A stretch of DNA of 13,757 nt from a virus. Of the stretch, positions 10,580 to 13,757 are shown one piece after another. The stretch is taken from UHGV virus genome UHGV-1765841; one strand, given 5' to 3'. A model generated the notes under the pieces. It ran no database searches. It saw only the letters and a list, made by a program, of their open reading frames with translations, and was not told the DNA's origin. A program made the position numbers and the translations under genes. Numbering within the stretch: the stretch's first letter is position 1; the number at the start of each line of letters is the position of its first letter.

Positions 10580-10752
10580 TGTCAGGAGTCCTGAATAGTG
10601 ATTAGAGGAGTCACATGTCGGCATCAGTTTCCCGACGATGCGCATCCTCCGCCATCAGTCCCGGATGGCTTATCACTGACACAACAGCACCTTAGCGAAT
10701 CGCGGGGCGCGACTCAGTAGCCTTGCCGTGTATTCATCACGGCGAGGTATTC
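10580..10752. promoter_or_regulatory. Divergent late promoter region (P_O leftward and P_P rightward in P2 terms), expected to be Ogr/Delta-type activator dependent
   Basis: 173-bp intergenic region between divergently transcribed O and P. Contains a perfect 13-nt palindrome tcaggagtcctga (10582-10594) and the inverted repeat GTCGG-N10-CCGAC (10617-10636). Exact -10/-35 elements and start sites not resolved by eye. Confidence 0.5.
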
Positions 10753-12525
10753 ATGACCATCACCACAGACACCACTCTTTTACACGACCCGCGTCGTCAG
10801 GCGGCGCTGCTGTACTGGCAGGGATTTTCCGTGCCGCAGATTGCCGCCATGTTGCAGATGAAACGCCCGACGGTGCAGAGCTGGAAACAGCGCGACGGCT
10901 GGGACAGCGTTGCCCCCATCAGCCGTGTCGAAATGAGCCTGGAAGCGCGGCTGACCCAGCTCATCATCAAACCGCAGAAAACTGGCGGTGACTTCAAGGA
11001 AATTGACCTGCTGGGACGCCAGATTGAACGACTGGCACGGGTAAATCGCTACAGCCAGACCGGCAACGAGGCAGACCTTAATCCGAACGTCGCTAACCGC
11101 AACAAAGGCGGGCGGCGCAAACCGAAAAAGAATTTTTTCAGTGACGAAGCCATCGAAAAGCTGGAGCAGATTTTCTTTGAGCAGTCTTTCGACTATCAGT
11201 TGCACTGGTATCGCGCCGGGCTTGAGCACCGCATCCGCGATATCCTGAAATCCCGCCAGATTGGCGCGACATTTTATTTTTCCCGCGAGGCGCTGCTGCG
11301 CGCCCTGAAAACCGGTCATAACCAGATTTTTCTGTCGGCCAGTAAAACGCAGGCGTATGTGTTCCGCGAATACATCATCGCCTTTGCCCGTCTGGTTGAC
11401 GTTGACCTGACCGGTGACCCGATTGTCCTGGGCAATAACGGCGCAAAACTGATTTTTCTCGGCACCAACTCCAACACCGCGCAGAGCCATAACGGCGACC
11501 TGTACGTCGACGAGATTTTCTGGATCCCGAATTTTCAGGTACTGCGTAAGGTGGCATCAGGTATGGCCTCACAGAGTCACCTGCGTTCGACCTATTTCTC
11601 CACCCCGTCCACGCTGGCGCACGACGCCTACCCGTTCTGGTCGGGTGAACTGTATAACCGGGGACGCGCCAGCGCCGCCGAACGCGTGGAAATCGACGTC
11701 AGTCATAACGCCCTTGCCGGTGGGCTTCTCTGTGCGGACGGCCAGTGGCGACAGATTGTCACCATTGAGGACGCCCTGAAAGGTGGCTGCACGCTGTTCG
11801 ACATTGAGCAGCTCAAACGCGAAAACAGCGCCGACGATTTTAAAAACCTGTTCATGTGTGAATTTGTTGACGACAAGGCGTCGGTGTTCCCGTTCGAGGA
11901 GCTGCAACGCTGCATGGTCGACACGCTGGAAGAATGGGAAGACTATGCACCCTTTGCCGCCAATCCGTTCGGCTCCCGCCCGGTATGGATTGGTTACGAC
12001 CCGTCACACCGTGGCGACAGTGCCGGATGCGTGGTGCTGGCACCGCCGGTGGTGGCCGGTGGCAAATTCAGAATACTTGAGCGTCACCAGTGGAAAGGCA
12101 TGGACTTTGCCACTCAGGCTGAATCCATCCGCAAACTCACCGAAAAATACAACGTCGAATACATCGGTATTGATGCCACTGGCCTCGGTGTCGGCGTGTT
12201 CCAGCTCGTGCGCTCGTTCTATCCCGCCGCGCGCGACATCCGCTACACGCCGGAAATGAAAACCGCAATGGTGCTCAAGGCAAAAGACGTCATCCGCCGT
12301 GGCTGTCTGGAATATGACGTCAGCGCCACCGACATCACCAGCTCGTTTATGGCTATCCGCAAGACCATGACCAGCAGCGGACGCAGCGCCACCTATGAGG
12401 CCAGCCGCAGCGAGGAAGCCAGCCACGCCGACCTCGCCTGGGCAACCATGCACGCCCTGTTAAATGAGCCACTCACCGCCGGTATCAGCACTCCGCTGAC
12501 ATCCACCATTCTGGAGTTTTACTGA
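10753..12525 (+). CDS. P: Terminase large (ATPase) subunit gpP
   Basis: Six-frame ORF starts at TTG 10723 without a Shine-Dalgarno; trimmed to ATG 10753 (GAGG at 10744-10747), giving 590 aa (MTITTDTTLLHDP...), the size of P2 gpP. Stop TGA overlaps the Q start (TGATG). Confidence 0.93.
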   Translation: MTITTDTTLLHDPRRQAALLYWQGFSVPQIAAMLQMKRPTVQSWKQRDGWDSVAPISRVEMSLEARLTQLIIKPQKTGGDFKEIDLLGRQIERLARVNRYSQTGNEADLNPNVANRNKGGRRKPKKNFFSDEAIEKLEQIFFEQSFDYQLHWYRAGLEHRIRDILKSRQIGATFYFSREALLRALKTGHNQIFLSASKTQAYVFREYIIAFARLVDVDLTGDPIVLGNNGAKLIFLGTNSNTAQSHNGDLYVDEIFWIPNFQVLRKVASGMASQSHLRSTYFSTPSTLAHDAYPFWSGELYNRGRASAAERVEIDVSHNALAGGLLCADGQWRQIVTIEDALKGGCTLFDIEQLKRENSADDFKNLFMCEFVDDKASVFPFEELQRCMVDTLEEWEDYAPFAANPFGSRPVWIGYDPSHRGDSAGCVVLAPPVVAGGKFRILERHQWKGMDFATQAESIRKLTEKYNVEYIGIDATGLGVGVFQLVRSFYPAARDIRYTPEMKTAMVLKAKDVIRRGCLEYDVSATDITSSFMAIRKTMTSSGRSATYEASRSEEASHADLAWATMHALLNEPLTAGISTPLTSTILEFY

Positions 12526-13559
12526 TGAGCAAGAAAAAAGGGAAAACACCGCGACCTGCGGCAAAAACAATCACCGCCAGCGCCCCGAAAATGGAGGCAT
12601 TCACCTTTGGCGAGCCGGTGCCGGTACTCGACCGCCGTGACATTCTGGATTACGTCGAGTGCATCAGTAACGGCAGATGGTATGAGCCGCCGGTCAGCTT
12701 TACCGGTCTGGCAAAAAGCCTGCGTGCTGCCGTGCATCACAGCTCACCGATTTACGTCAAACGTAATATTCTGGCTTCAACGTTTATCCCGCACCCGTGG
12801 CTTTCCCAGCAGGATTTCAGCCGCTTTGTGCTGGATTTTCTGGTATTCGGTAATGCGTTTCTGGAAAAGCGTTACAGCACCACCGGTAAGGTCATCAGAC
12901 TGGAAACCTCACCGGCCAAATATACCCGTCGTGGTGTGGAGGAGGATGTTTACTGGTGGGTGCCGTCCTTCAACGAGCCGACAGCCTTCGCGCCCGGCTC
13001 CGTGTTTCACCTGCTGGAGCCGGATATTAATCAGGAGCTGTACGGCCTGCCGGAATATCTCAGCGCCCTTAACTCTGCCTGGCTGAATGAGTCGGCCACG
13101 CTGTTCCGCCGCAAGTATTACGAAAACGGCGCACATGCCGGATACATCATGTACGTCACCGATGCCGTGCAGGATCGCAACGATATCGAAATGCTCCGCG
13201 AAAACATGGTTAAGTCGAAAGGCCGCAACAACTTTAAAAATCTGTTTCTCTATGCCCCACAGGGGAAAGCCGACGGCATTAAAATTATCCCCCTCAGTGA
13301 AGTGGCGACGAAGGACGATTTTTTTAATATCAAAAAAGCCAGCGCCGCTGACCTGCTGGACGCGCACCGCATCCCCTTTCAGTTGATGGGGGGCAAGCCG
13401 GAGAACGTCGGGTCGCTGGGTGATATTGAGAAAGTGGCAAAGGTCTTTGTCCGCAATGAGCTTATCCCGTTACAGGACAGGATCCGCGAGATAAACGGCT
13501 GGCTCGGTCAGGAGGTCATCCGCTTTAAAAACTACTCACTGGACACTGACAACGGCTGA
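12525..13559 (+). CDS. Q: Portal (capsid vertex) protein gpQ
   Basis: 344-aa ORF, same length as P2 gpQ; ATG 12525 overlaps the P stop; followed by an intrinsic terminator and the cos site, as at the P2 left end. Confidence 0.93.
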   Translation: MSKKKGKTPRPAAKTITASAPKMEAFTFGEPVPVLDRRDILDYVECISNGRWYEPPVSFTGLAKSLRAAVHHSSPIYVKRNILASTFIPHPWLSQQDFSRFVLDFLVFGNAFLEKRYSTTGKVIRLETSPAKYTRRGVEEDVYWWVPSFNEPTAFAPGSVFHLLEPDINQELYGLPEYLSALNSAWLNESATLFRRKYYENGAHAGYIMYVTDAVQDRNDIEMLRENMVKSKGRNNFKNLFLYAPQGKADGIKIIPLSEVATKDDFFNIKKASAADLLDAHRIPFQLMGGKPENVGSLGDIEKVAKVFVRNELIPLQDRIREINGWLGQEVIRFKNYSLDTDNG

Positions 13560-13564
13560 ACATC

Positions 13565-13586
13565 GCCGCCTGCGGGCGGCTTTTTT
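13565..13586 (+). terminator. Rho-independent terminator downstream of Q
   Basis: GC stem gccgcc (13565-13570), loop tgcg, ggcggc (13575-13580), followed directly by TTTTTT (13581-13586); 6 nt after the Q stop codon. Confidence 0.65.
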
Positions 13587-13728
13587 ACAACCCGCCATCA
13601 CGCCCTCACACGCTCACCACCGCACAAAACAGCCCGCATACACACCAACGCCCCGGCGAACAATCTAAACGCCATCACGACGCGCTCAGACGCTGAAAAA
13701 ATAAAATCAGCACCACCGCCAGCGCGCA

Positions 13729-13747
13729 GTGCTTTCCCCGCCTCGCC
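13729..13747. other. cos site: 19-nt cohesive-end sequence of P2-type phages (joined form)
   Basis: gtgctttccccgcctcgcc at 13729-13747 is the exact reverse complement of GGCGAGGCGGGGAAAGCAC, the P2 cohesive end as I recall it. Position about 170 bp beyond the Q stop and orientation match the P2 left end. Sequence continues on both sides, so the ends are joined here. Confidence 0.7.
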
Positions 13748-13757
13748 CGCCCGCTTC

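Follow-up and report, generated by a model that had tools for sequence, protein, structure and literature searches.

The A+C-rich flank of a P2-type cos site is a naturally dispensable segment with repeats at fixed distances from the nick and may be an accessory packaging element

A strongly A+C-skewed tract of 142 nt (13587-13728, + strand) lies close to the end of the 13,757-nt stretch of viral DNA analysed here (the window), between the terminator of the portal gene and the cohesive-end sequence. It is ordinary, already known non-coding DNA of P2-type genomes, reaching from portal gene to cos. Our preferred reading, to which we give an even chance, is that it forms the left-arm flank of a P2-type cos, in which a 7-bp edge of the conserved core is joined to a dispensable 135-bp module that would act as an accessory site of protein binding or bending during terminase assembly. 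The composition of the tract, its repeat layout, the pattern of its conservation, the conserved spacing of its repeats and its dispensability were all observed directly in the window and its relatives.

The window corresponds to the arm of a P2-type (Peduovirus) phage or prophage that carries the late genes, and its orientation is the reverse of that of the P2 map. On the + strand, the terminase large-subunit gene P (ORF 10723-12525, with a P2-type start at 10753) is followed by the portal gene Q (12525-13559; 344 aa), an ORF transcribed towards cos whose counterpart is annotated as gpQ or portal in P2, fiAA91-ss and 186. A terminator scan placed the intrinsic terminator tQ on the same strand at 13565-13586, where a hairpin of six G-C pairs with a 4-nt loop (GCCGCCTGCGGGCGGC) is followed by a T6 run; the homologous place is annotated tQ in P2 and tW in 186, and tQ is invariant in 28 Peduovirus variants. 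Immediately beyond the tract, and outside its coordinates, the 19-nt cohesive-end sequence (13729-13747, - strand) is the exact reverse complement of P2 GGCGAGGCGGGGAAAGCAC, the feature annotated as cosL in the P2 and fiAA91-ss records. The window closes with CGCCCGCTTC (13748-13757, + strand), the first 10 nt of the far-side cos core, which P2 continues with CGCCCGCTTCACGGGGCGGTTTTAATGCA and which has near-identical counterparts in P4 and pro147. Over the last 218 nt of the window, identity to the left end of phage fiAA91-ss is 100%; it is about 90% for P2 and 72-76% for 186, PSP3 and EtG. Of 5426 complete E. coli genomes, 2170 (∼40%) contain a match, with a query cover of at least 80% in 1538.

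Base counts over the tract (A48 C61 G22 T11) give 76.8% A+C, with 43% C and 15.5% G. Among all 142-nt pieces of the window (mean A+C 50.8%, sd 6.4) the tract ranks first, about 4 sd out, and no piece is equally skewed the other way; A/C scoring gives 13587-13721 as the maximal segment, and GC skew and AT skew also peak there. The initial annotation, which had reported an A+C skew between the Q terminator and cos, was therefore right about both the skew and its landmarks, and the A-run it described (gaaaaaataaaatcag) is present at 13695-13710. Of the CAC, ACA and CGCC units that it considered repeated, only CGCC is enriched (5 observed, 1.7 expected, P=0.014); CAC and ACA show no excess over the expectation from composition (P=0.24 and 0.54, respectively). 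ACGC is enriched as well (6 observed, 1.4 expected, P=0.003). What is unique in the window is the combination of C-G skew with low T (8-11% in the tract), each of which is found elsewhere by itself. The far side of cos, which is also non-coding, has an A+C content of 0.43-0.62 and no comparable skew.

The tract contains two copies of a composite motif (CCATCACG / CTCAsACG / CACCAC), which lie at -124 and -44 relative to the nick, about 79 bp from each other; a direct repeat, CGCCATCACG, is found at 13593 and 13670, 77 bp apart. The distal copy, R1 (13593-13622, + strand), reads CGCCATCACGCC-CTCACACGCT-CACCACCGC and comprises box A (CCATCACG, 13595-13602, position -134), box B (CTCACACG, 13605-13612, position -124) and box C (CACCAC, 13615-13620, position -114). 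The cos-proximal copy, R2 (13670-13721, + strand), reads CGCCATCACGACGCG-CTCAGACGCT-(GAAAAAATAAAATCAG)-CACCACCGC; here box A (CCATCACG, 13672-13679, position -57) and box B (CTCAGACG, 13685-13692, position -44) are separated from box C (CACCAC, 13711-13716, position -18) by the 16-bp A/T-run at 13695-13710, an insertion that splits this copy. All boxes and the run are given on the + strand. Between R1 and R2 lies a fast-evolving, C/A-rich spacer (13623-13669, + strand).

The expectation that the tract would be conserved among P2-like cos regions was borne out for P2, 186 and PSP3, in all of which the tract is kept and its boxes stand at matching distances from the nick (-132/-134, -123/-124, -57 and -44). 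R2 is also kept next to cos in phage 613R3 and in some of the loci that carry cargo genes between Q and cos. When 23 lineage representatives, chosen to share less than 80% pairwise identity, were scanned for the CTCAGACG box with one mismatch allowed, 9 had it at -47 to -37 and 10 at -127 to -115; a shuffle control gave 0.17 expected and a maximum of 2, which excludes chance. Over all unique sequences, proximal box B stands at -44 or -43 in 82 of 83 matches, and the box-to-box spacing is 78-80 bp in 49 of 57. The outliers (58, 69-70 and 88-89 bp) differ by roughly whole helical turns, and some at 88-89 may be matches to the adjacent box A. In one of them (L145), an IMG/VR contig of a Peduovirus variant, a 10-bp deletion in the spacer leaves boxes at -114 and -44, with a spacing of 70 rather than 80; in another (L146) the spacing is 58, and both deviations are close to whole helical turns. 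The two-box layout with its conserved spacing is not mentioned in the literature surveyed, outside which lay Ziermann & Calendar 1990 and Dodd & Egan 1996.

Divergence over the tract as a whole (0.078) is about equal to that at 4-fold sites of Q (0.090), which argues that there is no tract-wide purifying selection and that constraint is visible only segment by segment. Within Peduovirus, the minor-allele frequency is 0.124 in the spacer, where 37 of 47 positions are variable, against 0.028 in R1, 0.043 in boxes A and B of R2, and 0.009 in both the A-run and box C of R2, while GCGCGCA and the 19-mer show no variation. Across the 23 lineages the spacers are hardly more alike than shuffled sequences (pairwise identity 0.577 vs 0.558), and in all 23 they retain an A+C content of 0.58-0.82 with C/G above 1. 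That length and box positions are kept while the intervening sequence drifts suggests a protein-DNA architecture anchored to the nick and argues for an accessory cos element. In a separate comparison, tract and cos were 100% identical to those of fiAA91-ss (L003) over a window portion (12525-13757) in which the adjacent portal gene is only 97.3% identical, and tract divergence was uncorrelated with synonymous divergence of Q over 406 pairs (r=0.07); together these values indicate that the cos flank and the portal gene recombine independently.

Conservation was surveyed in 80 enterobacterial prophage loci, found via the portal protein, and 120 viral-contig stretches, found via a DNA pattern of the cos core, which combined into 157 unique loci where portal gene and cos are linked. 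In 99 of these the portal stop codon lies no more than 240 nt from cos and nothing is inserted; A+C over -140 to -8 ranges from 0.55 to 0.78 (median 0.69), reaching at least 0.62 in 91 of the 99, and 72 have the -44 box. The other 58 carry 0.4-4.9 kb of cargo between portal gene and cos, which usually replaces the tract up to -8; the median A+C of these cargo loci is 0.54, with the skew kept in 13 and the tract lost in 45. The segment is thus one that unrelated genes replace or interrupt in relatives, in keeping with the description of the cos-to-terminator position as a hotspot at which foreign genes are gained without disturbing other functions (PMC5694545). Retrons replace the cos-to-terminator DNA of a 186-related prophage (Dodd & Egan 1996, Virology 219:115, as cited in PMC5694545), and ctx occupies the hotspot in phiCTX (Nakayama 1999, as cited in PMC5694545), a Pseudomonas relative in which we likewise found ctx as cargo in the slot.

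Cargo next to cos is very diverse. In pro147 cos is flanked by an Ec48-family retron on the Q side (L007:289-2183) and by another reverse-transcriptase gene on the far side; in NC_041848 the far-side cargo is a cytolethal distending toxin (L210:1999-2618), and Fels-2 encodes a 565-aa hypothetical protein (L214:5640-7337). In a prophage of Enterobacteriaceae bacterium G50 (L021:3987-4110), the portal stop codon is directly followed by an R2-like module and then by a degenerate second cos, GCGCGCAGTGCTTGCCCCCTCACC, with the intact cos 2.5 kb further on, beyond three cargo ORFs. From its sequence this arrangement appears to be a partly duplicated cos that cargo acquisition left behind, which would fit a participation of cos ends in cargo exchange, as speculated in PMC9122126.

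Only the cos-side edge of the tract belongs to the conserved cos core. With the ends of P2 and P4 joined and oriented like the window, the segment shared by the two consists of GCGCGC(A/G), the 19-mer and then CGCCCGCTTnnnGGGGCGGTTTTAATGCA, and corresponds to the published 55-bp core common to P2 and P4 (Ziermann & Calendar 1990, as cited in PMC9122126, PMC5694545 and PMC3931495). Its Q-side edge, GCGCGCA (13722-13728, + strand, conservation 0.99), was found in every locus examined (more than 70), among them pro147, the cargo loci and P4 (as GCGCGCG). These 7 bp are the whole overlap between tract and core. The remaining 135 of 142 bp fall outside the core and are missing in P4, where the 170 nt upstream have an unrelated sequence with 49% A+C; no flanking bases common to P2 and P4 were found in the tract beyond 13722-13728. 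Most of the core (∼29 bp) is on the other side of cos, largely past the window end, and the window holds of it the exact 19-nt P2 end, the Q-side GCGCGCA and the first 10 far-side nt.

Several further features were seen around the core. Its far-side half (13745-13757 in the window, continued in P2 (the reverse complement of L006), P4 and pro147) comprises a G+C hairpin and then a T-run, CCGCCCGCTTCACGGGGCGG TTTTAATGCA. The element is terminator-like, lies on the same strand as P-Q and is kept in all loci, the window holding its first bases only; judging from its sequence, it could be a stop for read-through just past cos, or a protein-binding palindrome. The 3′ arm of the tQ hairpin is complementary both to the spacer (13571-13583 with 13626-13638; 13 nt, 85%) and to far-side core CCGCCCGC (13572-13579 with 13747-13754; 8 nt, 100%); such inverted repeats of the tQ stem (I1 and I3, formed by G+C-rich elements) are likely due to chance and are absent from 186-type sequences. 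On the minus strand, GCTGGCGG at 13716-13723, 6 bp from the cohesive end, is one mismatch away from Chi (GCTGGTGG) and is oriented such that it could be read by RecBCD moving towards the left end and not by RecBCD entering from it; the resemblance is probably coincidental. A weak terminator-like site on the same strand (13725 to 13710, with a T-run) was rejected, half of its stem pairs being G-T and the site not being conserved in 186-type sequences.

The initial annotation had proposed that the tract contains the recognition elements that terminase needs for packaging. Its position beside cos and its conservation in P2, 186 and PSP3 speak for such a role, and as an auxiliary role it remains plausible; as a requirement it is contradicted by most of the core lying outside the tract and largely by natural variants. 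Phage pro147, obtained by induction of a lysogen, plaques on four E. coli strains (PMC5285337). In its genome (NC_028896) an Ec48-type retron has taken the place of all DNA between the Q stop codon and position -8. The gpM and gpP of this phage share 246 of 247 and 588 of 590 residues with the window proteins (99% identity), so essentially the same terminase packages a tract-less genome. Satellite P4 is packaged by the P2 terminase with only GCGCGCR on the Q side, and no P4-like satellite in the sample had the boxes. Fels-2, which the annotation had named among the phages for a comparison of cos regions, carries a 1.7-kb ORF between Q and cos in place of the skewed tract. Viral contigs L105 and L120 also lack the tract, having 2 kb of cargo, despite gpM 98% and gpP 99.5-99.7% identical to those of the window. 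A tract carrying elements required by terminase is accordingly most improbable: on the evidence of these variants, it is not required for packaging and could at best be a helper element, as distinct from the packaging signal proper.

From the conserved layout we infer protein binding at the tract and a packaging-related benefit. The boxes and the A/T-run would be auxiliary sites of binding and bending for the small terminase subunit gpM, for a host architectural protein, or for both, with the A/T-run as the bend; the module may help terminase to assemble on the left chromosome end, or to stay bound to it, in the manner of lambda cosB. The last 7 bp (GCGCGCA, 13722-13728) would be the only part belonging to the conserved core that terminase needs, and the spacer would join R1 to R2, its sequence free to drift while its length and C/A-rich composition are kept. 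In P2 the right DNA end is found at the tail; the left end would then be the first to be packaged, and the tract would have a cosB-like position. The phiCTX record annotates repeats R4-R6 across cos, a precedent for repeats at a P2-like cos. One study reports that cosmids were transduced orders of magnitude better when their P4-derived cos had longer flanks (PMC9594776). Against an accessory role stand the packaging of P4, pro147 and Fels-2 without the boxes and the near-synonymous divergence of the tract as a whole. No conserved IHF consensus was found in the A/T-run in the sequences read (window, 186 and other lineages); of WATCAANNNNTTR between the repeats there is only a half-match, AATCAG, itself not conserved, while the A/T-richness and length of the element are conserved. 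An CTCAGACC box at +44, on the far side of the P4 cos, was dismissed as chance, being confined to near-identical P4 copies (+43) and lacking in other P4-like contigs.

Binding of a protein to duplex DNA leaves unexplained why the skew keeps to one strand. Rho could supply a reason: the tract may be a rut-like insulator, on whose C-rich, G-poor, unstructured RNA Rho would load when transcription reads through tQ, stopping it before it crosses cos and enters the genes on the other side. The late P-Q operon is heavily transcribed, and the skew follows directly after tQ on the transcript-sense strand. In 48 loci the distal part of the tract averages 46% C and 17% G, compared with 29% and 28% in the upstream coding DNA, and C/G stays above 1 in every lineage although the spacer is randomised, which points to a composition constrained on one strand. 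The predicted tract RNA is almost unstructured (MFE -19.3 kcal/mol; other 142-nt pieces of the window, -42.7 ± 9.4) and among the least structured of these, so that the at least ∼80 nt of C-rich, G-poor, weakly structured RNA expected of a rut site are present. Satellites have neither a P-Q operon facing cos nor the tract, and among cargo loci the tract is kept more often where the last cargo ORF points towards cos (6/12 vs 8/38; odds ratio 3.75), an association that is non-significant (Fisher P=0.07) and drawn from non-independent loci. On the other hand, tQ looks strong and should leave little tract RNA, a rut site needs neither T depletion nor boxes at fixed positions and nick spacing, and another part of the window comes close to it in C-G skew alone (0.325 near position 500, 0.362 in the tract). 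We consider this reading rather unlikely, and retain it, since the strand-specific C-rich, G- and T-poor composition fits Rho loading, as the main rival or a possible second function. A combined arrangement, about which we are similarly doubtful, would have a helically phased two-site array, its boxes about 79 bp (roughly one DNA wrap) apart and locked to the nick, used by terminase or a host architectural protein for an advantage in packaging, for example over core-only P4-type satellites, with the C-rich spacer doubling as a Rho-loading insulator that keeps late transcription off cos.

The tract might also be functionless filler, a remnant spacer in the cargo hotspot that is kept solely through linkage to cos and the portal gene and owes its composition to inheritance from an ancestor or to local mutation bias. 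Wholesale replacement both in 45 of the 58 cargo loci and in pro147 and Fels-2, the hotspot reported at the same position (PMC5694545, citing Dodd & Egan 1996 and Nakayama 1999) and an overall divergence close to the synonymous rate are all compatible with filler. It fits poorly, however, with boxes, A-run and spacing that are conserved across genera while the intervening sequence is scrambled, with a skew that persists in lineages whose spacers resemble each other no more than shuffles do, and with the absence of skew from the equally non-coding far side. Pure filler is possible for the spacer; for the tract as a whole we think it rather unlikely. A small protein or small RNA encoded on the minus strand has next to no likelihood. 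In many relatives a minus-strand frame is open across cos and tract, and several records annotate there a 53-56-aa 'hypothetical protein' (FIG00639694), as in NC_041848 (L210:1259-1420, corresponding to about 13598-13757, minus strand). Yet a minus strand poor in A has few stop codons, which is the only reason why the frame is open; indels of 1, 2 and 10 nt shift it in close relatives, the C-terminus is changed in P2 and in three other relatives (L107, L133 and L164), and the ORF would be cut in mature DNA, so that ORFs of this type are probably mis-annotations. ORFs inside the tract itself encode only 21 and 26 aa, and its coding potential was rejected. A σ70 promoter scan of 13000-13757 found no site, and an Rfam scan of 13300-13757 on both strands, with E up to 10, gave only chance-level matches (best E=2.5).

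Taken together, these data place the essential part of the P2-type packaging signal in a short core around the 19-nt ends, with an A+C-rich flank that is replaceable, a distinction that matters for annotation and for the building of P2/P4 cosmids and transducing particles. The bounds of the flank, the Q stop codon or tQ on one side and -8 from the nick on the other, also delimit a cargo slot whose content is often exchanged and includes retrons and further genes for defence or virulence. Only the layout of two boxes at a fixed spacing is possibly worth an experiment. Should terminase or a bending protein indeed bind the boxes, the phage family would have its first defined accessory cos element, which might also explain the better transduction of cosmids with longer cos flanks.

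In lambda, cosB consists of gpNu1 R sites and the IHF site I1 beside cosN and is needed for normal packaging initiation. The P2-type tract resembles it in that R1 and R2 place short repeated motifs, together with an A/T-rich element, at fixed distances on one side of the nick, between the nick and a packaging or portal gene cluster; unlike cosB, the module is naturally dispensable and lacks a conserved IHF consensus, binding to it is putative, and the adjoining genes are transcribed towards cos, not away from it. With rut sites it shares a C-rich, G-poor, weakly structured RNA of about 85-135 nt on the sense strand downstream of an operon; it differs in lying behind a strong intrinsic terminator, in being strongly T-poor and in having position-locked boxes, and any Rho dependence is putative. 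The replacement hotspot between cos and terminator in P2/186-like prophages, with its retron cargo in pro147, is the same genomic position, treated in the literature as replaceable DNA, whereas a two-box layout is seen here. The 'region 3' repeats R4-R6 of phiCTX (GenBank NC_003278), which span its cos, are likewise repeated elements flanking a P2-like cos; phiCTX has no A+C skew by cos (A.18, C.29, G.31, T.22) and no CTCAGACG boxes.
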